IMG/VR virus record: IMGVR_UViG_3300032038_000051 | Coordinates: 12,740 to 76,739 of that record | Direction: 5' to 3' (one strand) | From: a virus | Taxonomy: Duplodnaviria > Heunggongvirae > Uroviricota > Caudoviricetes | Length of the DNA: 64,000 nt | Part shown: in pieces, positions 1,228 to 46,264 of the stretch | Layout: every line of letters begins with the position of its first letter | Position numbering within the stretch: the stretch's first letter is position 1 | Translations under genes and position numbers: made by a program | Notes under the pieces: model-generated | What the model saw: the letters and a program-made list of their open reading frames with translations, nothing else | The model's database searches: none | Told to the model about the DNA's origin: nothing

Positions 1228-1528
1228 GGAGGCCATCCGCACGCTCGCCGAGGCGAGCGAGAAGATGCAGAGGATGCTCGACCCGCACGATAGCGGTGCC
1301 GTCATGTACGTCGCCGGCGTCAGCTTCGCCGCGGAATGGCTGCGCGAGGCGACCTCCGACGACGCGGAGGAGGTTAGCCCAGACGAGCTCGCCGAGGGCG
1401 TGATGGGGACGGTGCAGGCGTGCGCGCCGCTCGTCGGCATCATCGACGCCCTCGCGGCGCTCGACGGCAAGAAGCTCGGCAAGGACGACTTGGCTAAGCT
1501 CGCCAGCACGCTCAAGGACATGGCATGA
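1217..1528 (+). CDS. hypothetical protein, tandem paralog of 898..1227
   Basis: GTG start giving VKAKEAIRTL..., similar N-terminus and acidic C-terminus to the upstream gene. Confidence 0.5.
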   Translation: MKAKEAIRTLAEASEKMQRMLDPHDSGAVMYVAGVSFAAEWLREATSDDAEEVSPDELAEGVMGTVQACAPLVGIIDALAALDGKKLGKDDLAKLASTLKDMA

Positions 1529-2451
1529 GCCTGAAGAACGAGGGCGTGAACTTCACGACCGTGAGGTTCAAGGGCACCGAGCAGGAGGTCAACGACCAGT
1601 GGCTCCGGTTCCGTGGCGAGGGCATAGGCGGCTCCGAGGTCGCCGGCATCCTCGGCATGTCGGCATGGGCCACGCCGATAACGATATGGCTCGAGAAGAC
1701 CGGGCGCGCCGAGCACCAGGACATCTCCGGCAACGAGCGCGTCGAGTGGGGCGTGCGGCTCGAGCCGACCATCAGGGCGAAGTTCCGCGAGAGCCACCCG
1801 ACTTTCAAGGTTATCGAGCCGAGGGCCACGCTGGTGTCGATCGCCCGCCCGTGGGCGCATGCGTCGCTCGACGGCATGGTGTACGACCCCGACATGGGCT
1901 GGGGCGTGCTCGAGGTCAAGACCGCTGGCAGCCGCGACGGATGGTTCGACGGCGACGAGGAGACGGTCCCGACCTACTACCTGACGCAGGCGGTCCACTA
2001 CATGAGCGTCACCGGGTTCAGGTACGTGCGCTTCGCGGTGCTGATATCCGGCTCCACGTACATCGAGCGCACGGTCCTCTGGGACGACGAGGACGTGGCG
2101 CTGGTGGTCGACGCGGTCGACTCCTTCTGGAACGACAACGTGCTGAGGGACGTGATGCCGGACATGGTGACCGCGAGCCCCGGCGACTCCAAGGCGATGC
2201 ACAGGCTGTACGTCCACTCGGACGAGGACATGGACGAGGAGCACGAGGCCGAGGCCGAGGAGCTCATGTCGGAGTACCTGGCCGCATCCGAGGCCGAGAA
2301 GGCGGCGAAGGAGCGCAAGGCGGTCGCGTCGACGTCGCTGAAGCGGCTCATCGGGGGGCACAGGGGCATCGTCGGCTGCGACCACGTCGCGACGTGGTCC
2401 AGGAGCGAGAAGCGCGACGGAGGCGTGAGGGTGAAGCGCAAGGTCGCGTAG
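1525..2451 (+). CDS. YqaJ-like phage exonuclease (lambda-Exo / PD-(D/E)XK family)
   Basis: GIGGSEVAGILG motif characteristic of the YqaJ viral recombinase domain; directly upstream of RecT. Confidence 0.8.
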   Translation: MSLKNEGVNFTTVRFKGTEQEVNDQWLRFRGEGIGGSEVAGILGMSAWATPITIWLEKTGRAEHQDISGNERVEWGVRLEPTIRAKFRESHPTFKVIEPRATLVSIARPWAHASLDGMVYDPDMGWGVLEVKTAGSRDGWFDGDEETVPTYYLTQAVHYMSVTGFRYVRFAVLISGSTYIERTVLWDDEDVALVVDAVDSFWNDNVLRDVMPDMVTASPGDSKAMHRLYVHSDEDMDEEHEAEAEELMSEYLAASEAEKAAKERKAVASTSLKRLIGGHRGIVGCDHVATWSRSEKRDGGVRVKRKVA

Positions 2452-2590
2452 ACCAATTGGCATGGTTTGGCAGGCATGGCACGGTCCGGCGGGGCATGGC
2501 GTGGCTTGTCCAGGCACGTCGAGGCAAGTCGCGGACGCAGGTTCATCTGGCGCGGGACACTTCCGCGCCTTTCGTTTAGGAGGAAGCAAC

Positions 2591-3778
2591 ATGGGACAGC
2601 TTGCAAGAAAGACCAGGGAAACTCAGGTCCAGCGGCAGCAGGCGAGGCCGCAGGACGGCATAGCGGCGATGCTCAGGGACAGGTGGCCGCAGATACAGGC
2701 GGTGATGCCGCGCCACATGAGCAGCGAGCGGCTCTTCCAGCTCGCGGTGTCCTCGATCAACCACACGCCGCAGCTCCTCGAGGCCACGCCCGAGACGATA
2801 CTCGCTTGCGTGATGAAGTGCTCCGCGCTCGGCCTCGAGCCGTCGGCGGTCGACGGTCTCGGGAGGGCCTACATCCTCCCATACCGCAACCGCAAGGCGG
2901 GCATAGTCGAGGCGCAATTCATTTTAGGTTATAAAGGCATGCTCGAGCTGTGCAGGAACTCCGGCGAGCTGAGGAGCATCGAGGCGAGGGTCGTGCACGA
3001 GGGGGACGTGTTCGAGTTCGAGTACGGCCTCAACGAGACGCTGCGGCACGTCCCGTGCGCCAACGGCGGGAAAATGACGCACGTCTACTGCGTGGCGAAG
3101 TTCAAGGACGGCGGGCATTACATCGACGTTATGACGAAGGACGAGGTGGACGCGATACGCAAGCGCTCCAAGGCGTCGCAGAGCGGCCCGTGGGAGACCG
3201 ATTACGAGGCGATGGCGCGAAAGACCGTCATCCGCCGCGCGTTCCCGTACCTGCCGGTGTCCGTCGAGGCGCAGGAGGCTGCCGCGTCCGACGAGACGAC
3301 CCCCGACTACGGCGGCGTGCTCAACCCGGTCATCGAGGTCGCCGACGCCGTCGTGACAGACGCCGCGCCCGAGCAGCCCGCCGGTCCGACCGACGAGGAG
3401 AAGGCCGAGCTCCGCAAGCTCACCATCGGATGCGTCGCGGTGGGCGTCGCGGAGCAGGACGCCAAGAGGCAGCTCTTCGCCCTATGGCGCGAGGGTGGCA
3501 TGGACGCCGCGCGCTCCTACGTGCAGGGCCTCGCAGACGATGCTGCCGTCGATTCGCTCGTCGAGAGGTGCGTGGCGTCAGGCTACGACCGCGACGACAC
3601 CAAGACGTGGCTCCTCGGCATCCGCTCCGCGCAGGGCATGGACGCCGCGAGGTCCGAGGCCGAGCGCATCATCGCCGAGGCAGCGGCCAACGCCGAGGCC
3701 AGCGGCGTCGACGCGGAGACGGGTGAGGTCGTGGACGCGGTCGTCGGCGACCTCGCGAGCGAAGACATCGCTTTTTAG
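2591..3778 (+). CDS. recT: RecT-family single-strand annealing recombinase
   Basis: GYKGMLELCRNSGE and VMTKDEVDAIRKRS signatures of RecT; GGAGG RBS before ATG 2591; paired with the exonuclease. Confidence 0.85.
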   Translation: MGQLARKTRETQVQRQQARPQDGIAAMLRDRWPQIQAVMPRHMSSERLFQLAVSSINHTPQLLEATPETILACVMKCSALGLEPSAVDGLGRAYILPYRNRKAGIVEAQFILGYKGMLELCRNSGELRSIEARVVHEGDVFEFEYGLNETLRHVPCANGGKMTHVYCVAKFKDGGHYIDVMTKDEVDAIRKRSKASQSGPWETDYEAMARKTVIRRAFPYLPVSVEAQEAAASDETTPDYGGVLNPVIEVADAVVTDAAPEQPAGPTDEEKAELRKLTIGCVAVGVAEQDAKRQLFALWREGGMDAARSYVQGLADDAAVDSLVERCVASGYDRDDTKTWLLGIRSAQGMDAARSEAERIIAEAAANAEASGVDAETGEVVDAVVGDLASEDIAF

Positions 3779-5701: not shown

Positions 5702-6391
5702 ATGCCGCGCCTTCACGTTTCCGGGGGCGGGTTCACGATCGTCCCCAACGAGATTGCGCGCAGCAAGGACATGACGAGCGCGGCCAAGGGTCGGCTCGTG
5801 GAGCTGATGTCCATGTCGGACGGATGGAGGTTCAACAAGGCGTACTTCTACAAGTCATCGAAGGACGGGAAGGACGCGACGAACCGCCAGCTCCGCGAGC
5901 TCGAGGAGCTGGGATACCTGCACATAGCGCCCGCGAAGGGGCTTGACGGAAGGTTCACGCCGGGGGACTGGTACCTGTACCTCTCTCCCGACGAGAACCC
6001 GTTCTTTCACGCGGAGCCAATCGAGGAGAAGGGGCAAGAGCAGATGACGCTTGACCTGCTGGGAACCAAGGAGACGGCCAAGGCCGACCATACGGAAGAG
6101 ATCGTGACGCGCGTCCTGGAGCACCTCAACGAGAGGGCCGGCAAGTCGCTCAGCACCAAGGCGGAGGGCAACCGCAAGCACGCCAGGGCGAGGCTGAGGG
6201 AGGGCTACACGGAGGCCGACCTCACCAAGGTCGTGGACGTCAAGTGCAGGGAGTGGGGCAGGACCGACATGGCGAGGTACATCCGCCCGCAGACCCTGTT
6301 CAGCGCCGAGCACTTCGACGTCTACCTGCACCAAGACGACGGTAGAAAGAGGGACGACGATGGCGGATGGTCGGACGCGAACGGCTGGTGA
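5702..6391 (+). CDS. phage replisome organizer (DnaD-like; conserved phage C-terminal domain)
   Basis: C-terminal ARARLREGYTEADLTKVVDVKCREW...YIRPQTLFSAEHFDVYLHQ matches the conserved phage replication-protein C-terminal domain; N-terminal wHTH. Confidence 0.75.
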   Translation: MPRLHVSGGGFTIVPNEIARSKDMTSAAKGRLVELMSMSDGWRFNKAYFYKSSKDGKDATNRQLRELEELGYLHIAPAKGLDGRFTPGDWYLYLSPDENPFFHAEPIEEKGQEQMTLDLLGTKETAKADHTEEIVTRVLEHLNERAGKSLSTKAEGNRKHARARLREGYTEADLTKVVDVKCREWGRTDMARYIRPQTLFSAEHFDVYLHQDDGRKRDDDGGWSDANGW

Positions 6392-7151
6392 GACATGCCA
6401 GTTCTGCGGGAGGTTGCTCCCCATGGTCAGGCACCAGCTCCCCGGCTTCAGGCCGATCCTCGTCCACGGGCAGTGCGACTGCCCGCAGGCGGTGGCCGAG
6501 GCCGAGGCCGAGAGACGCAAGGCCGAGCAGGAGGCGCGCGCCGAGAAGTTCCGCGCCGCGTGGAGGGCGTCCGGCATCCCCGCCGCGTTCTCCCACGTGG
6601 AGGCGGACTTCTCGATGGTGCCGGTCCTCGACGCCAACAGGGCGGTCTACCTCACGGGCAAGACGGGCCGCGGAAAGTCGTGGCGGGCCGCCCAGTACGT
6701 CAAGGGGTACCTCATCAGGCACACGGTGACGAAGAGGGTCGGGCCGGGGTCGATGACGTTCTGCGACAGGCAGGCCCGGTTCCTCGCCGCTGACGCCGTG
6801 CAGTCGCTCATCCGGTCCACGTATGGTAGGTGGAGCCAGTCCGAGGAGGACCTCTTCCGCCAGTGGACCGAGGTCGACCTGCTGCTGTTCGACGACGTCG
6901 GCAAGGGTGTGTCCGACGAGAGGAACGCCGAGACGACGTTCCGTATCCTGCGGACGCGCATGGACAACGAGAAGGCGACGGTCATCACGTCGCAGTACAC
7001 CACGGCGGACCTCGCCGACGCCCTGCGGGGACGCGACGAGACCCTCGACGCCATCAGGTCGAGGCTGCGCGGGTGGTGCGAGGGGGTCGTGCTCGACGGC
7101 CCCGACAGAAGGCTTGAACGGAGCGGCCCCGCGCAGGGACCGCAGTCATAA
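6360..7151 (+). CDS. DnaC/IstB-like AAA+ helicase-loader ATPase
   Basis: Walker A (LTGKTGRGKS), Walker B (LLLFDDVG), N-terminal Cys cluster; follows the replisome organizer. Confidence 0.7.
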   Translation: MADGRTRTAGETCQFCGRLLPMVRHQLPGFRPILVHGQCDCPQAVAEAEAERRKAEQEARAEKFRAAWRASGIPAAFSHVEADFSMVPVLDANRAVYLTGKTGRGKSWRAAQYVKGYLIRHTVTKRVGPGSMTFCDRQARFLAADAVQSLIRSTYGRWSQSEEDLFRQWTEVDLLLFDDVGKGVSDERNAETTFRILRTRMDNEKATVITSQYTTADLADALRGRDETLDAIRSRLRGWCEGVVLDGPDRRLERSGPAQGPQS

Positions 7152-34778: not shown

Positions 34779-34851
34779 CGGCGCGGAGCACATGAACTGT
34801 CAACGAGGGGACGGCAATCTGGCCGCCCCCTTTTTGTTGGAGGGAGAAAGA

Positions 34852-35988
34852 ATGAACGAGAACCGCAAGATGGCGACCGTGCGCAAGGTCGCCGGGACCA
34901 TGCCCATCGAGGGCGCCGACCGCATCGAGCGCGTCATGGTCGACGGGTGGGTGGTCATCGACCGCAAGGACGAGTGGCATGAGGGCGACCTCTGCGTCTA
35001 CCTCGAGCCCGACACCTTCGTCAGCAAGGACGTCGAGCCGCTGTCGTACCTCATGGCGAGGGGCACCAAGCGCATGGAGCACGACGGCGTGGAGTGCGAG
35101 GGGCATGTCCTGCGCACCATCCGGCTGCGCGGGGTCTACAGCGCCGGCCTCATTGCCAAGCCGTCCGACTTCTTCATGTCGCCGGACGAGGTTCGTGCGG
35201 CATACGAGAGCGGCGAGGCGCTCGACGAGCGCATCGGCGTCTGGGAGTATCAGAGGCAGGTCAAGTGCCCCGATGGCACCACGAGACAGGTCTCCAACCC
35301 CTACGACCAGAGCGTCGCGCCAGTCACAGACGCCCAGCGCATCCAGAACTGCGCCGACGTCTGGGACGCGCTCAAGAAGGTCGACGCGTACGCCACGGTC
35401 AAGGTCGACGGCATGAGCATGACCACGGTGCTCGACCCCCGCACCAACAGGTTGCGGCTCTTCTCGCACCACAGGGAGCTCGGCTACTCCGACGAGCCCG
35501 CCGACTCCGGCGCGTCCGACGCCACGAGGGGGCAGCGCTCCTACGACGCCGCCAAGGCGCAGGGCATCGTCGACTTCTGCCTCGGCCATCCGGGGATCAC
35601 GGTGCAGTACGAGCTGACGGGGCCAAAGATCCAGCGCGGCATCACCGGCGGGTTCAGGTGCCACGTGTTCGCCGTGTGGGACATGGCGAAGATGCGCAAG
35701 ATCCCCTACGACGAGATCGTCGAGAGCGGCTGGGACGCCATCGTGGCGTCGCACGTGAGGGTGCTCGACATGAGGGCGTCCGACTACGACACCGTGGCGG
35801 ACGCGCTGATGGCCGTCGACAAGCTGAGCGGGAACGTGGTCAAGGGCAAGCCCGACGAGGGCGTGGTCTTCCACGTGACCGGCCAAGGCTCCGCCGACGA
35901 GTACGAGTGGGCGCGCGTCAGGAACAAGCTGGGCCCGAACGCCGAGTTCAAGGTCGTGTCCCAGCGATACCTGTCGAAGGAGAAGTAG
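34852..35988 (+). CDS. ATP-dependent RNA ligase, DRB0094-like family
   Basis: N-terminal MATVRKVAGTMPIEGADRIERVMVDGWVVIDRKDEWHEGDLCVYLEPDTFV resembles the DRB0094-family start (..HPNADKLE..GW..VVKKGEF..GDL.VY.E.D); nucleotidyltransferase motif I VKVDGMSMT (KxDG). Confidence 0.7.
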   Translation: MNENRKMATVRKVAGTMPIEGADRIERVMVDGWVVIDRKDEWHEGDLCVYLEPDTFVSKDVEPLSYLMARGTKRMEHDGVECEGHVLRTIRLRGVYSAGLIAKPSDFFMSPDEVRAAYESGEALDERIGVWEYQRQVKCPDGTTRQVSNPYDQSVAPVTDAQRIQNCADVWDALKKVDAYATVKVDGMSMTTVLDPRTNRLRLFSHHRELGYSDEPADSGASDATRGQRSYDAAKAQGIVDFCLGHPGITVQYELTGPKIQRGITGGFRCHVFAVWDMAKMRKIPYDEIVESGWDAIVASHVRVLDMRASDYDTVADALMAVDKLSGNVVKGKPDEGVVFHVTGQGSADEYEWARVRNKLGPNAEFKVVSQRYLSKEK

Positions 35989-40977: not shown

Positions 40978-41052
40978 CGCGGGGTAGAGTAACGGTCACT
41001 CGGCAGCCTCATGAGCTGCTACATGCCGGTTCGAGTCCGGCCCCCGCGACCA
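40978..41052 (+). tRNA. tRNA-Met (anticodon CAT), elongator-type or Ile2-like
   Basis: Cloverleaf folded by hand: acceptor CGCGGGG/CCCCGCG, D stem GAGT/ACTC, anticodon stem GCAGC/GCTGC with loop CTCATGA, T arm GCCGG-TTCGAGT-CCGGC, encoded CCA; C1-G72 paired; G at position 37 is unusual. Confidence 0.7.
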
Positions 41053-41053
41053 A

Positions 41054-41129
41054 GCCCGAGTAGCTCAGCTGGCAGAGCGGCTGCCTAGTAAGCAGCGGGT
41101 CACGGGTTCGATTCCTGTCTCGGGCTCCA
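41054..41129 (+). tRNA. tRNA-Thr (anticodon AGT)
   Basis: Acceptor GCCCGAG/CTCGGGC, D stem GCTC/GAGC, anticodon stem GCTGC/GCAGC with loop CTAGTAA, T arm ACGGG-TTCGATT-CCTGT, encoded CCA. Confidence 0.65.
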
Positions 41130-41143
41130 TGTCACACCCGTAC

Positions 41144-41231
41144 GGAGGCGTGGCAGAGCGGCAATGCAGCTCCCCGCTAAGGAGTACACGTCCGCCGACG
41201 TGCGTAGGTTCGATCCCTACCGCCTCCGCCA
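41144..41231 (+). tRNA. tRNA-Ser (anticodon GCT), type II with long variable arm
   Basis: Acceptor GGAGGCG/CGCCTCC, 3-bp D stem, anticodon stem GCTCC/GGAGT with loop CCGCTAA (C at position 33), long variable arm ACACGTCCGCCGACGTGCGT, T arm AGG(T)TCGATCC, encoded CCA. Confidence 0.65.
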
Positions 41232-41236
41232 TGAAC

Positions 41237-41310
41237 AGGCCCTTGATGTAACGGCAGCATGACGGTCTCCAAAACCGTCCGTGGGGGTTCGAGTCCCTCA
41301 GGGCCTGCCA
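41237..41310 (+). tRNA. tRNA-Trp (anticodon CCA)
   Basis: Acceptor AGGCCCT/AGGGCCT, anticodon stem ACGGT/ACCGT with loop CTCCAAA, T arm GGGGG-TTCGAGT-CCCTC, encoded CCA. Confidence 0.7.
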
Positions 41311-42851: not shown

Positions 42852-43487
42852 ATGGCGTTCGAGGATTTCAAGAGAAACGTGGCGGTGGAACATGAAAGGA
42901 CGTTCGACGAGTTCACGAATCAGTACGTCGAGCACGCGAGGGCCACGTACACGATGCGTGCGGGGGCCAAGGCACGCGTGAGCGGCCACGTGTACGACCT
43001 CGACGGCTCGGTGGGAGTCATGAGGGACATGCTCGAGCGGAACGCGCTCGAGCTCCTTTGGAACGGCGTCCGAGAGCAGTGCGACGCCCCCGCGGCCAAG
43101 GCGACGCGGTACGACGACGCCGTGGGGACGATCAAGCGCATGGCGGAGTCCGTGATGGCCGTGTCGTACAGGTACCCGTGGGTCATCAGCCGGAACATGT
43201 ACGAGGACTACGTCGACGCGCTCCGCTGCGTCGGGCTCATAGGCGACGACGAGCGCCTGAGGCTGATCCTCGGGTACCACAATCTGATTCTCGGGTACGA
43301 CGCGTCCGCGAGGCTCCCCGACGTGGCCTTGGACGACTTGGGCCGCGTCGACTGGAAGGCGAACGGGTGGCCCGAGCCGACTCCGTTCTTCTGGGAAGTC
43401 GACACGTCGATGATGCCCGAGCCGGTGCGCGACTACTGGGAGGAGACGTCTCGGGGCGCGGAGGAGGCGTACTCCAACCAGCCATGA
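42852..43487 (+). CDS. hypothetical protein (211 aa)
   Basis: ORF with GGAGGATGGG RBS; last rightward gene. Confidence 0.6.
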   Translation: MAFEDFKRNVAVEHERTFDEFTNQYVEHARATYTMRAGAKARVSGHVYDLDGSVGVMRDMLERNALELLWNGVREQCDAPAAKATRYDDAVGTIKRMAESVMAVSYRYPWVISRNMYEDYVDALRCVGLIGDDERLRLILGYHNLILGYDASARLPDVALDDLGRVDWKANGWPEPTPFFWEVDTSMMPEPVRDYWEETSRGAEEAYSNQP

Positions 43488-43544
43488 GCACGAACGTTGG
43501 TGACGCGTACCTTTCCGGCATCTAGCAAAACTCGTATGCAAAGC

Positions 43545-43591
43545 AAAAAGCCCCCACGCTCCCGATGATGGGAACGTGGGGGCTTTTTTCA
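43545..43591. terminator. bidirectional rho-independent terminator at the strand switch
   Basis: AAAAAGCCCCCACG...CGTGGGGGCTTTTTT: 9-bp GC stem with an A-tract on one side and a T-tract on the other; convergent genes on either side. Confidence 0.7.
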
Positions 43592-43613
43592 TGCCGGTCT
43601 CGTCGCTGTTATC

Positions 43614-43877
43614 CTATGCCGCCTTCCTCGCGGCGTGACGGAGCGTGCCGTGCAGGAAGTCGTACATAGCCTCGGTCGTCGTATGCCCCGGCTTGGCGGG
43701 GTCGAACGTGACGATGCTGACGATCACGTCGTCATTCTTGCCCACGAGCGGGAGGGCGGCGCATATTGCGTCCGACAATCTGTCGAAACGACCGATGCGC
43801 TTGGCTTCCCACTCCTCGTGAGGGCACCAAAAGCCCTCGATGCGTGCGTTCTGCACATCGACTATAAACGCTATCAT
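43614..43877 (-). CDS. hypothetical protein
   Basis: ORF; first leftward-block gene after the terminator. Confidence 0.5.
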   Translation of the reverse strand: MIAFIVDVQNARIEGFWCPHEEWEAKRIGRFDRLSDAICAALPLVGKNDDVIVSIVTFDPAKPGHTTTEAMYDFLHGTLRHAARKAA

Positions 43878-43907: not shown

Positions 43908-44930
43908 TCATTTTCGCGACGCCTCGTGCGTGACGGTTACCGCGTCGGTGCCGCCGTTCACGAAGGTGGGCATCACCCACCTCAGGACGAGCTCTCGCTT
44001 CTCCGGCTCGGAGCGCGGCCCGGTCCAGTAGTGGTGCCAGTGGGCGGCCCGGACGTGCGGCCTTACGGTCCTGTCTCCCTCCGTGCCGCCTTCGCCGACG
44101 TACCTGACCTTGGCGGCCCCTATCGCCCTCCCGACGCGCCTGCCGACCGCGTGGATGGTGGACTCGCAGCGCCCCTTGCGCCTCGACTTGCCCGACGGGC
44201 GGTACTCCACCTCCTGGTCGCTGTTGTCGGCGACCACGTACAGCAGGTGGCTCAGCACCTGGTTGTAGTGCTCGCGCAGCATGCGCTCGTAGTCCCTCGC
44301 GAACGTCACGTAGGCGTCGCGCGACCCGTTCACGCGCCTCGCCTCCGCCAGGTCGAACTCCATCGCCTCCGATATGACCTCGCCGAGCGTGTCGACGTCG
44401 AGGTTTATGGACATGACGCTCCTCGGCTGCCCGTCAACGAGCTGCATGATCGACACGCATTCGGCCCCGTCCTCGAACGCCAGGGCCTCGGCCCTTATCG
44501 TGCGGTCCGTCCACGCGAAGAACCCGCTGGTCATGGCGACGCTGCCGTCGCTCATGCTCATGGGCATCCGAGCCTCCACGAACAGGCACGGGTACGGCAG
44601 CCTCCTGAGCATCCCGACTGGCATCGAGTCGGGGAAGCTCGTCTTGAGCAGCTCGCTCGTGAGCGCCTTATCGAACCTGTACACGTGCCTCGACGACTGC
44701 CAGTTCGCCCAGAGGGACACGTCCTCGCAGAGCAGGTACGTCGGGTCGTTCGATATGCGCCACGCCCTCTCCGCGTCGCTGATCCTCCCGTTCACCTCGA
44801 CCGACCTCGCCTCTATGGCCTCCTGGCTGAACGAGAAGCACGGCCCCGTCACGCGCGCGAGCTGCGGATGCGCCTTGAGCAGCTCGCTGACGTGCCTGTC
44901 GGCCACCGTGGCCGGTCGCCTATGACTCAT
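43908..44930 (-). CDS. hypothetical protein (340 aa) with His-rich C-terminal motif
   Basis: Long ORF with balanced composition; RPHVRAAHWHHYWTG segment is a possible HxH/Tyr metal-binding motif; no family confidently recognised. Confidence 0.55.
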   Translation of the reverse strand: MSHRRPATVADRHVSELLKAHPQLARVTGPCFSFSQEAIEARSVEVNGRISDAERAWRISNDPTYLLCEDVSLWANWQSSRHVYRFDKALTSELLKTSFPDSMPVGMLRRLPYPCLFVEARMPMSMSDGSVAMTSGFFAWTDRTIRAEALAFEDGAECVSIMQLVDGQPRSVMSINLDVDTLGEVISEAMEFDLAEARRVNGSRDAYVTFARDYERMLREHYNQVLSHLLYVVADNSDQEVEYRPSGKSRRKGRCESTIHAVGRRVGRAIGAAKVRYVGEGGTEGDRTVRPHVRAAHWHHYWTGPRSEPEKRELVLRWVMPTFVNGGTDAVTVTHEASRK

Positions 44931-45378
44931 CCCCGAGCCTCCTCTCCACCGACCTCGCGTACACCATCTGCCCCCTCGGGAGCCTGACGCCGTCGAGCTT
45001 GCCCTCCTTCAGCAGGGCGTACACCCTCTGCGTGGACACGCCGAGCGCGCCAGCCGCGTCCCTGACCGTCATGGTGCGGAAGTCGCCCTTCTGCATCCAC
45101 TCCAGGACGTACGGCCCCTGCTTCACGACCGGTATGTTGTCGGTCGTGCAGTCGTTGGCGTCTATGTCCGCCCCGAGGGCCGCTATCATGTCACCCACCA
45201 CCGGCTTTGACAGCAGGCCGTGCTCGGCCGCAAGCCTCGTGAGCTCGACCATCCCGCGCCCCGGCGTGAGCTGGTAGTCTCCGACCCTTGCGTCGTTCAA
45301 CCTTATGCCCACGTTTCGCAGCTCGTTCACCAGGTAGTGGTTGTACCTGGCGAGCGCCCTTATCGTGTCATCTCGCAT
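44920..45378 (-). CDS. DNA-binding protein with excisionase/MerR-type HTH
   Basis: C-terminal MTVRDAAGALGVSTQRVYALLKEGKLDGVRLPRGQMVYARSVERRL; start placed at ATG 45378 with GGGAGGA RBS, because the upstream ATG at 45444 lies inside the repeat array. Confidence 0.55.
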   Translation of the reverse strand: MRDDTIRALARYNHYLVNELRNVGIRLNDARVGDYQLTPGRGMVELTRLAAEHGLLSKPVVGDMIAALGADIDANDCTTDNIPVVKQGPYVLEWMQKGDFRTMTVRDAAGALGVSTQRVYALLKEGKLDGVRLPRGQMVYARSVERRLGDES

Positions 45379-45405
45379 GCGTCCTCCCAACAAACGATGA
45401 GTTAC

Positions 45406-45455
45406 TTGCAATGCAATTGTACTCTGGTTGCAATAGGGTTGCAAGAGGGTTGCAA
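45406..45455 (-). promoter_or_regulatory. array of palindromic TTGCAA hexamers with 11-bp phasing (operator/iteron-like)
   Basis: TTGCAA at 45406, 45428, 45439 and 45450 (cttgcaatgcaattg ... ggttgcaatagg gttgcaagagg gttgcaaatga) immediately upstream of the HTH gene start. Confidence 0.5.
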
Positions 45456-45658
45456 ATGAACTGACGGCATGGCAAAACTCGTTCCAGACGGGGCTAGAGA
45501 AAGACGGACCCCTCGGCGCGGATGCACGCGAGGGGTCACACCCCGCTTACGCGGGGAACAGTCGCCTCCCGAAAAGCGTACGATACTGCTTAACGGGTCA
45601 TTCCCGCCTCGGCGGGCAATGGCGATGCCTGCATTATGCCCCGACGTCGAGCCAACGT

Positions 45659-46264
45659 TTACGACTCTTCGGCGAGCGGCGCGTCAGCGAGGTATCCCGC
45701 CGCGACGACGTTCGACACCACCCTCTCCATCCATTCTTCCCATCCGTCTCTCCCGAGCCTGTCGAACTCCGCGATCGTGTCGGCGACGTATGGCCCGTTG
45801 CCTCGCATGTCCTCGGACGGGTACCACACGACCGAGTTTGGCATGCTCGCCACGAGGTCGCGCAACCGGTCGTCGGGCACGGCCGAGCACACGAACAGCA
45901 CGTCGCTGACGTCGATGTCGAACTCCCTTATCAAGTTGATGTAGTCGTGCCCGTCCCTTCGCACGTGCTTGCCGTTCTCTGGCAGCGCGCATCGCCTCGG
46001 CTTGCCCAACCCGCGCTCGGGGTACGCGGCGTCGTACCTGTCGACGCACAGGTACTCGTCGAAGCCCTCGAACAACCATCCCTGCACGCCGACGAAGCCC
46101 CCGACGTCCACGACGGCCATGCCCTTGGGCCACGTCGCGGCGACGGCCTGATAAAAGCGCTCGAAACACAGGTGGTCCGGCCCGATTTCGGCGCTGGCGG
46201 ACCTCATCACGGCGTCAAGCTCGCCCTTAGGCACCCTGAGAAACAACGGAGTCGGAAATCTCAT
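45659..46264 (-). CDS. hypothetical protein, possible SAM-methyltransferase-like fold
   Basis: VVDVGGFVGVQG resembles SAM-binding motif I; GGAGG RBS. Confidence 0.45.
   Translation of the reverse strand: MRFPTPLFLRVPKGELDAVMRSASAEIGPDHLCFERFYQAVAATWPKGMAVVDVGGFVGVQGWLFEGFDEYLCVDRYDAAYPERGLGKPRRCALPENGKHVRRDGHDYINLIREFDIDVSDVLFVCSAVPDDRLRDLVASMPNSVVWYPSEDMRGNGPYVADTIAEFDRLGRDGWEEWMERVVSNVVAAGYLADAPLAEES

Follow-up and report, generated by a model that had tools for sequence, protein, structure and literature searches.

A phased TTGCAA array in a phage genome as the candidate promoter and autorepressor operator of an excisionase/BldC-type regulator

A 280-bp gap in a phage genome, lying between the gene of a 201-aa protein (45659-46264) and the last three genes of a leftward arm, carries a dense set of TTGCAA hexamers; what is this array for, and which protein reads it? 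An earlier note on this DNA had left two answers side by side, an auto-regulated operator for the adjacent helix-turn-helix (HTH) protein or an origin-like element serviced by a nearby 340-aa protein. By combining repeat statistics, promoter anatomy, conservation in relatives and structure prediction, a coherent answer may be given: the array is probably the promoter and cooperative autorepressor operator of the 152-aa HTH protein's own operon.

The TTGCAA array and the promoter that it overlies

The window, by which we mean the whole 64-kb stretch of DNA that was analysed, contains eight copies of TTGCAA, and four of the eight lie within 45406-45455 (at 45406, 45428, 45439 and 45450), as the earlier note had said. 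The plus strand of 45400-45459 reads agttacTTGCAAtgcaattgtactctggTTGCAAtagggTTGCAAgagggTTGCAAatga. The 11-bp direct repeat that had been described there is also borne out, since GGTTGCAA has exactly three exact copies in the window, all of them in the array (45426, 45437 and 45448) and each one 11 bp from the next. When up to two mismatches are allowed, the pattern TTGCAA-N5-TTGCAA has four overlapping matches in the window, again all in the array, compared with 0.59 expected, and none of 100 shuffles reached four or more such matches. Similarly, in 300 first-order Markov simulations of the window, not one contained at least three TTGCAA in 50 bp, and not one contained any N5-phased TTGCAA pair; a Poisson estimate for four TTGCAA in 50 bp anywhere in the window is approximately 1e-6. 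The TTGCAA array is real and lies far beyond chance.

The extent of the array is larger than the four hexamers, which stand, because a fifth unit had been overlooked: a degenerate one at 45417-45422, in phase with the others, which reads TTGTAC on the plus strand and GTACAA on the minus strand. In total, the array comprises five 11-bp units at 45406, 45417, 45428, 45439 and 45450, with an exact 11-bp period and a span of 45406-45455. At least three sites in the same orientation and about one helical turn apart, the arrangement by which Xis/RDF/BldC-type operators are recognized, are thus present. The TTGCAA core is itself palindromic, so binding to direct repeats and binding to inverted repeats are indistinguishable from the core alone, and the direction of the units is given only by the CC flank (GGTTGCAA on the plus strand). 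The longer palindrome that had been proposed at 45406 does not survive inspection: TTGCAATGCAATTG (45406-45419) agrees with its own reverse complement, CAATTGCATTGCAA, at no position, and consists of short palindromes that overlap one another (TTGCAA, TGCA and CAATTG). An Rfam search returned four tRNAs only, and the array and the structured intergenic region around it match no known RNA family.

The features of the locus are as follows, where L001 to L011 are loci of relatives described in the next section.

45507 to 45537, minus strand: GC-rich hairpin with a 9-bp perfect stem, then CGTCTTTCTCT (inverted repeat search)
45450 to 45455, minus strand: repeat unit 1, TTGCAA then CC, at about -46 of the predicted start (present in the window, L001 and L002-L004)
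45439 to 45444, minus strand: repeat unit 2, TTGCAA, the predicted -35 hexamer (promoter scan; 9 of 9 aligned loci)
45428 to 45433, minus strand: repeat unit 3, TTGCAA, in the predicted promoter spacer (relatives keep T..CAA)
45416 to 45422, minus strand: degenerate repeat unit 4, GTACAA (45422 to 45417), in phase and overlapping the predicted -10
45416 to 45422, minus strand: predicted -10 hexamer, TACAAT (45421 to 45416) (promoter scan; TA..AT invariant)
45406 to 45411, minus strand: repeat unit 5, TTGCAA, 4 nt past the -10 (TT.CAA invariant in all loci)
45383 to 45387, minus strand: Shine-Dalgarno GGAGG of the HTH gene (from the sequence; conserved in all relatives)
44920 to 45378, minus strand: gene of the 152-aa regulator, ATG start at 45378 (MRDDT...)
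43908 to 44930, minus strand: 340-aa AcrVA2-family gene, overlapping the HTH gene by 11 nt (PF26125; 7ci1)
43614 to 43877, minus strand: 87-aa gene, the last of the leftward arm (ORF map)

On the minus strand, the sequence runs cat TTGCAA ccctc TTGCAA cccta TTGCAA ccagag TACAAT tgca TTGCAA gtaactcatcgtttgttgGGAGGacgc ATG. A promoter scan of minus strand 45444-45416 finds TTGCAA, 17 nt and TACAAT, with 9 of 12 consensus matches, that is, -35- and -10-like hexamers at the 16-18 bp separation of sigma-70-type promoters, both of them near consensus. The sites that the earlier note had listed are real, but it had not seen that the middle hexamer would serve as a promoter -35. The transcription start is inferred to lie at approximately 45409, within unit 5, and the array ends 28 bp 5' of the ATG at 45378, which agrees with the earlier placement of the array directly 5' of the leftward gene 44920-45378. 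It is worth noting that the distance from the start of the -35 to the start of the -10 is 23 bp, which is two 11-bp periods plus one, so that the promoter can be written entirely in repeat units. A scan of the whole 20-kb leftward arm for promoters showed no enrichment over shuffles, and consequently the promoter call rests on conservation and not on the scan.

Based on this anatomy, a mechanism of control may be proposed. The five units, whose core TT(G/A)CAA is usually followed by CC, would overlie the -46 region, the -35, the spacer, the -10 and the +1 of a promoter that is predicted to drive the 152-aa HTH gene, the AcrVA2-like gene and the 87-aa gene. Once the phage genome enters the cell, this operon would fire strongly. 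One monomer of the 152-aa protein would then be loaded onto each unit, the monomers lying next to one another along a single face of the helix and probably binding cooperatively, with Xis, Apl, Cox, BldC and D29 Gp36 as the models for such binding. Finally, the filled array would hide the -35, the -10 and the start site from RNA polymerase, and the first product of the operon would shut the operon down by negative autoregulation. The repressive sign is deduced from position: protein sites at the -35, the spacer and the +1 normally mean repression. Excisionase/BldC-class proteins are reported to bind direct repeats one helical turn apart and to repress promoters (PMC7498355, PMC5859096, PMC12266134).

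The opposite sign, in which the HTH protein would activate or remodel the promoter and so regulate itself positively, as some regulators of the MerR or BldC type do, is improbable. BldC-type proteins distort DNA, and their effect can be of either sign (PMC5859096), and the extra -46 unit, which occurs in two lineages, sits at the position of an activator. On the other hand, the spacer has the optimal length of 17 bp, compared with the 19-20 bp of MerR-activated promoters; the -35 and -10 are near consensus, and units over the -10 and +1 occupy positions typical of repressors.

Conservation of the array with the regulator gene

The 152-aa protein is rare. Only 7 relatives were found at E<=1e-3 among 5.8 billion proteins, and a scan of JGI metagenomes added one further full-length relative (L011). 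The DNA was retrieved for all full-length relatives, which gave 10 loci (L001-L009 and L011), and together with the window these form five lineages with 45-95% protein identity. No close relatives were found by blastn against GenBank phages, nor by back-translated protein patterns in IMG/VR or in GTDB genomes.

In all 10 loci, the layout TTGCAA(-35)-N5-TT(G/A)CAA or T(C/A)GCAA-N6-TA(C/A)(A/T/C)AT-N4-TT(G/A)CAA is kept. The last unit is followed after 26-30 nt, a stretch with GGAGG inside, by ATG-MRDDT, and in every relative the GGAGG is 4-8 nt before the ATG. The -35 unit, CTTGCAA with CC, is invariant in 9 of 9 aligned loci, and the spacer unit reads TTGCAA, TCGCAA, TAGCAA or TTACAA, with T..CAA invariant. 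The extra -46 unit is found in two of the five lineages (the window with L001, and L002-L004) and is absent in L005-L009 and L011. In L008 and L009, the four units read TTGCAA, TTACAA, TTACAA and TTACAA, a perfect four-unit 11-bp array, and TACAAT is embedded in the third, a complete TTACAA repeat. In general, it is at the units and the -10 that the aligned loci show invariant columns, and elsewhere the intergenic sequences of different lineages are unalignable. The TGCA that separates the -10 from the last unit is not shared by the relatives, which have GGCC, GGTT, GGCT or GCTT there. Inverted CCCCC...GGGGG flanks are also present in some lineages (L002, L005). The array pattern occurs once per locus, and once in the 64-kb window.

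The spacer and +1 units are dispensable for RNA polymerase, and the spacers of ordinary promoters show no such conservation. The conservation of these hexamers beyond what RNA polymerase needs implies that the DNA has a second reader. Across the five lineages, the only gene to which the array is constantly linked is the downstream HTH gene, and the upstream neighbours vary by locus (a 201-aa protein, RlaP, an XRE protein, BglII and others). The loci L002-L004 are informative in this respect. There, the HTH gene is the last gene of its arm and is followed by convergent genes only, and the AcrVA2-like gene is 2.7 kb upstream of it or absent within 4 kb; the array remains with the HTH gene, not with the AcrVA2-like gene.

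The same promoter-operator might have another reader, a different phage regulator or a host protein, with the HTH protein acting elsewhere, for example on host DNA. This is unlikely, though it has some points in its favour. An XRE-type HTH gene is immediately upstream in L006 and L025, and there are relatives in the HTH alone that have no array: in 12 metagenome loci (L012-L023) similar over residues 96-147 (42-69% identity), no TTGCAA pairs were found, and the motif is therefore not predictable from the HTH sequence alone. Against another binder, the HTH gene is the sole constant partner of the array in five lineages in which the upstream neighbours differ, and the repeat sequence shifts when the DNA-binding domain of the family shifts.

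The latter is seen in distant members of the family, which profile searches showed to share the N-terminal domain and to carry other DNA-binding domains. P0088 (locus L026) has GVTPQAIRKAI as its recognition helix, and in the promoter of its operon GGTTGCG recurs at 1792, 1803 and 1814, again with an 11-bp period, together with a degenerate fourth unit, TACAGT, and, after the -10, CGCAACC as an inverted copy. In P0090 (L029), TGCCATCA repeats are found in the same place. TTGCAA is absent from both L026 and L029. That the repeat sequence changes with the DNA-binding domain while the architecture stays supports self-recognition. The auto-regulated operator is thus the favoured one of the two earlier readings: the register of the array with the -10, the Shine-Dalgarno and the ATG holds in five lineages, and holds with or without the adjacent 340-aa gene, the HTH class binds phased repeats, and different repeats accompany other DNA-binding domains.

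A separate candidate, L010, was the sole IMG/VR match to the exact 22-base promoter pattern. It belongs to an unrelated phage with 44% GC, has no regulator homologue within 7.8 kb, and was treated as chance or convergence.

The regulator and its operon

The 152-aa protein consists of an N-terminal five-helix domain (residues 1 to approximately 98) and a C-terminal winged HTH (approximately 99-145). Its start is the ATG at 45378, as the alignment of homologues begins at MRDDT. A longer reading, a 174-aa ORF from the TTG at 45444, was rejected, its N-terminal extension being the translated array; in the same way, the extension in the 165-166-aa calls in L005 and L006 is the array (ATG TAC AAT GGC CTT GCA A.. 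giving MYNGLA..).

The C-terminal domain is an excisionase/BldC-type winged helix, so the excisionase-type HTH named in the earlier note is upheld. On the window protein, HTH_17 scores E 1.3e-5 (25.8 bits, just under the 27-bit cut-off) and TIGR01764 scores E 1.3e-5 (25.4 bits, below the 28.8-bit cut-off), and precomputed PF12728 matches are found on six of the seven homologues. The family profile matches the Pukovnik Xis 4j2n among PDB sequences (E 4.7e-4), and the fold matches of the C-terminal domain, from a poor model (pLDDT 37-71), are Xis, the BldC-DNA complexes 6amk and 6ama, RacA and P2 Cox (4lhf). All Pfam, NCBIfam and PHROG matches of the regulator are to generic HTH or excisionase families. 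The block LGVSTQRVY in the HTH is invariant in the family and is the most conserved block of the protein, which appears in line with the conserved DNA core.

The excisionase likeness raises the question of whether the units are sites for a recombination directionality factor in an attP arm, with the HTH protein as the phage excisionase. Three points favour it: the HTH family is that of the excisionases, Xis proteins have direct repeats in helical phase as their sites (PMC7498355), and the distant member P0088 adjoins an integrase in a prophage. We nevertheless regard this as very improbable. Searches of the larger ORFs in the 64-kb window, which is part of the genome, gave no integrase family match, none was called in the 8-kb L002-L004, and no att site was found. 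Moreover, the phage looks large and of a virulent type (tRNAs, recombination and replication genes), the array falls together with a promoter and with translation signals whose positions are fixed, and the 152-aa protein, with its extra domain, is approximately three times the typical size of Xis.

The extra domain has an unexpected fold. In the AlphaFold model, residues 1-90 have pLDDT 74-92, and the best structural matches of the N-terminal domain are the small subunit Cas11 of the type I-C Cascade (Cas11c) and the identical C-terminal domain of Cas8c, with a Foldseek probability of 0.99 at 16-18% identity; the five-helix bundle of the N-terminal domain can be superimposed on Cas11. Predicted viral structures, in gut phages, show this domain both by itself (98 aa, TM 0.84) and joined to an XRE-type HTH, and in P0089 it may be preceded by a ribbon-helix-helix stretch, as read by eye. 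The wider family comprises this helical domain fused to a winged HTH, XRE or putative RHH, or alone in gut phages. For an effector with an autoregulatory module attached, one would expect just this combination of a conserved helical domain and exchangeable DNA-binding domains.

One conceivable implication is that the 152-aa protein is a bifunctional anti-CRISPR (Acr), with the N-terminal domain as a Cas11 decoy and the Xis-type winged helix as a built-in Aca. If so, the N-terminal domain would mimic type I-C Cas11 and poison Cascade assembly or R-loop locking, the C-terminal winged helix would shut the cassette off through the TTGCAA array, and, with the co-transcribed AcrVA2-like protein added, the early arm would end in a two-component anti-defence operon. 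In that case, the wider family would represent a new and widespread class of Cas11-mimic Acrs with interchangeable autoregulatory modules. However, fold resemblance alone does not prove Cas11 homology of a helical bundle. No homology to Cas11 or Cas8c at the sequence level was found by phmmer or by a profile against PDB sequences, and an HMM of the N-terminal domain gave 6 matches among 1.84 billion proteins, with no Cas protein among them. Because helical bundles converge easily and none of these searches gave a sequence link, the Cas11-mimic proposal is speculative and we consider it doubtful. CasPR-type DNA-binding Acrs were also compared; these have CapR and AP2 domains and are unrelated to the 152-aa protein.

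The remaining genes of the operon bear on the role of the array. The 11-nt overlap of the AcrVA2-like and HTH genes places them in the same operon, and the 87-aa gene is probably its third gene. The latter is kept after the AcrVA2-like gene in L001, and its product has no family match in Pfam, PHROG or NCBIfam searches. The 340-aa protein is an AcrVA2 homologue, not an initiator: PF26125 (AcrVA2-like) is found on P0008, which is identical to it, and on 77 homologues, it aligns with AcrVA2 of PDB 7ci1 (E 3.6e-11) colinearly and with PHxRxxHWH retained, and its PHROG match is phrog_6160. In AcrVA2, H286, R288 and H291 are functionally important residues, which the retained PHxRxxHWH block includes, and the protein destroys the mRNA of Cas12a after recognition of the nascent N-terminus; for most AcrVA2 homologues, Cas12a is absent, and they may have other targets (bioRxiv 10.1101/2022.11.29.518452). 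Thus, an HTH regulator shares its operon with a gene from a validated Acr family, as in acr-aca pairs. The adjacency of the two genes is kept in L001, L005, L006 and L011 and not in L002-L004.

The gap upstream of the array contains GC-rich hairpins, with an intergenic RNA fold z of -2.87. The hairpin at 45507-45537 is followed by a T-rich run, which makes a terminator for the upstream gene likely, and it is therefore the probable terminator of the 201-aa gene, which would insulate the promoter. The window as a whole (63% GC) resembles the half of a large phage genome that carries the non-structural genes, with plus-strand genes reaching 43487 and minus-strand genes running from 63245 down to 43614. 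The plus-strand genes include RecE/RecT, a DNA methyltransferase, a sliding clamp, an RNA ligase and four tRNAs, and a replisome organiser (Phg_2220_C) and a DnaC/IstB-like loader are encoded at 5702-7151, 39 kb from the array.

These data also bear on the second of the earlier readings, the origin serviced by the 340-aa protein, and on its extension to a plasmid-like partition centromere of the R1 parC/ParR kind serviced by adjacent genes. Short direct repeats of helical period over a promoter also fit R1 parC and many iteron origins. Here such a role is very improbable, as the AcrVA2 homologue is not a Rep, ParM, ParA or TubZ, and neither an adjacent initiator gene nor an AT-rich unwinding element is found at the array, where the GC minimum is 0.48 over approximately 100 bp and no AT-rich stretch is extended. 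The replication module is at 5702-7151, with RecE/RecT and the sliding clamp elsewhere, and in L002-L004 the array accompanies the HTH gene, downstream of which all genes are convergent, instead of the AcrVA2-like gene. In addition, the units keep a fixed register with the -10, the Shine-Dalgarno and the ATG.

Comparison with known systems

As a cis element, the array would be of an already known type, a phased direct-repeat operator of the Xis/BldC type overlapping its own promoter, and it offers one clean example of a promoter that is predicted to be built wholly from the binding units of its own repressor. The specificity variants TTGCAA, TTACAA, GGTTGCG and TGCCATCA are a ready-made orthogonal set for the study of how Xis/BldC-type proteins read DNA and cooperate. 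The main interest lies in the cassette that is controlled, an AcrVA2-family gene and a regulator with a domain like the Cascade small subunit. If the resemblance to Cas11 is functional, the locus points to a new anti-CRISPR family, for which the search signature would be a phased-repeat promoter and then a fusion of a helical domain with a DNA-binding domain.

In R1 parC/ParR, 11-bp direct repeats flank or overlap the operon promoter and are bound by the operon's small DNA-binding protein, with autoregulation as the result. The locus described here differs in that no partition NTPase is found in the operon or nearby, the units number 3-5 rather than ten, and the binder is a winged helix, not a ribbon-helix-helix protein as ParR is.

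A likeness is also found in the excisionase-type repressors. Apl of phage 186 binds cooperatively, requires about three adjacent sites and represses the promoters that these overlap (PMC7498355), and P2 Cox (4lhf) is among the fold matches of the C-terminal domain of the 152-aa protein. Apl and Cox are single-domain proteins, act as excisionases at att as well, and run the lysis-lysogeny switch. By comparison, the 152-aa protein has an extra N-terminal domain of 98 residues, no integrase or att site was found with it in the ORFs scanned, and the sole array site in 64 kb is the regulator's own promoter. BldC of Streptomyces forms head-to-tail oligomers on direct repeats of variable number (PMC5859096), but it controls a host regulon, whereas here the repeats would build the promoter of the regulator's own gene. 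Similarly, Gp36 of D29 is an Xis-like repressor that acts on direct repeats in a lytic mycobacteriophage (PMC12266134); its site, AGGCGGC-N13-AGGCGGC, is in or near gp1 and not in its own promoter, and here the unit is TT(G/A)CAA with a strict 11-bp period.

The logic of the operon resembles that of the Aca repressors (Aca1/Aca2), in that the HTH gene is co-transcribed with a gene of an anti-CRISPR family from a strong promoter with its own operator, as predicted here. The known Aca proteins are dimers on inverted repeats, whereas the units here are phased and of the direct type, not IR1/IR2; aca is usually downstream of acr, whereas here the HTH gene comes first; and, unlike in acr-aca pairs, in L002-L004 the HTH gene stands alone, without an adjoining AcrVA2-like gene. 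For the Cas11-mimic idea there is a precedent in AcrIB4, a phage homologue of the Cas8b C-terminus (Cas11b) with 38% identity to Cas8b that has been proposed to poison Cascade; in the present case the likeness is one of fold only, and the domain is fused to a DNA binder. Finally, there are several Acrs in which an inhibitory domain is joined to an HTH with autorepressing activity (PMC9410906, PMC8633003, PMC9001735, PMC10901769, PMC13530269), and these self-repressing Acrs, AcrIF24, AcrIIA15 and AcrIE10, follow the same operon logic as that proposed here.

Start codon and upstream DNA of the regulator gene

Over window 45379-45444, the longest ORF extends the gene of the 152-aa HTH regulator to 174 aa, beginning from a TTG at 45444 that lies inside the array of phased TTGCAA units. 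Similarly, the 165-aa gene calls for two regulator homologues start within the array (L005 404-448; L006 806-850), and in both loci the called ATG overlaps the -10 (ATG TAC AAT...). The 174-aa ORF and the 165-aa calls were rejected as over-extended; the true start of the regulator is MRDDT.

Between the array and the next gene upstream (window 45456-45658), three GC-rich hairpins are predicted on the minus-strand transcript (fold z -2.87), and a search of this hairpin region against Rfam gave no match. The hairpins are probably a set of stacked terminators. Their conservation is uninformative, because the region is kept only in L001, a 95%-identical relative.

The AcrVA2-like protein and the gene surroundings

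The 340-aa protein of the operon (window 43908-44930, minus strand) belongs to the AcrVA2 family (PF26125; PDB 7ci1, E 3.6e-11) and retains the H/R/H residues required for AcrVA2 activity. Directly after the operon, the rightward and leftward arms of the window meet across a 126-bp gap (window 43487-43614). The following features were also located in the window:

1525-3778: RecE-like and RecT-like genes
5702-7151: replisome organiser (Phg_2220_C) and IstB/DnaC-like loader
34792-35988: RNA ligase gene
40978-41310: four clustered tRNA genes (Met, Thr, Ser, Trp), close to where the rightward arm ends

A replication origin is more likely to be situated near the replisome organiser/loader module. 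In relatives (L002-L004 4565-8322), the regulator gene is surrounded by RtcB, TROVE (Ro60-like) and RlaP genes, which, together with the RNA ligase of the window, look like an RNA-repair gene set of this phage group.

P0088, a distant family member with a different DNA-binding domain, is encoded in a prophage (L026 344-4695), where it lies between an integrase and the lysis cassette and is flanked by two 126-aa genes. This prophage interval is a typical location of accessory or anti-defence genes.

Repeat layouts at other loci

The layout TTGCAA-N5-TTGCAA-N6-TACTAT-N4-TTGCAA, as in the window array, is also present at 6488-6526 of L010 (IMGVR_UViG_3300045988_162129), an unrelated phage of 44% GC. 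The gene downstream is likewise unrelated, no regulator homologue was found within 7.8 kb of the layout, and the match may reflect chance or convergence.

Direct repeats are also located immediately 5' of other AcrVA2-like operons:

L024 2012-2086: TTGTACACCAAC, three copies spaced 28-30 bp
L025 2898-2937: ATTTGCACG/ATTTACACAG units recurring every 10 bp

In L024, the gene preceding the AcrVA2-like gene has what looks like a ribbon-helix-helix motif at its end. The repeat core of L025, TT(G/A)CAC, is similar to the TT(G/A)CAA core of the window array.
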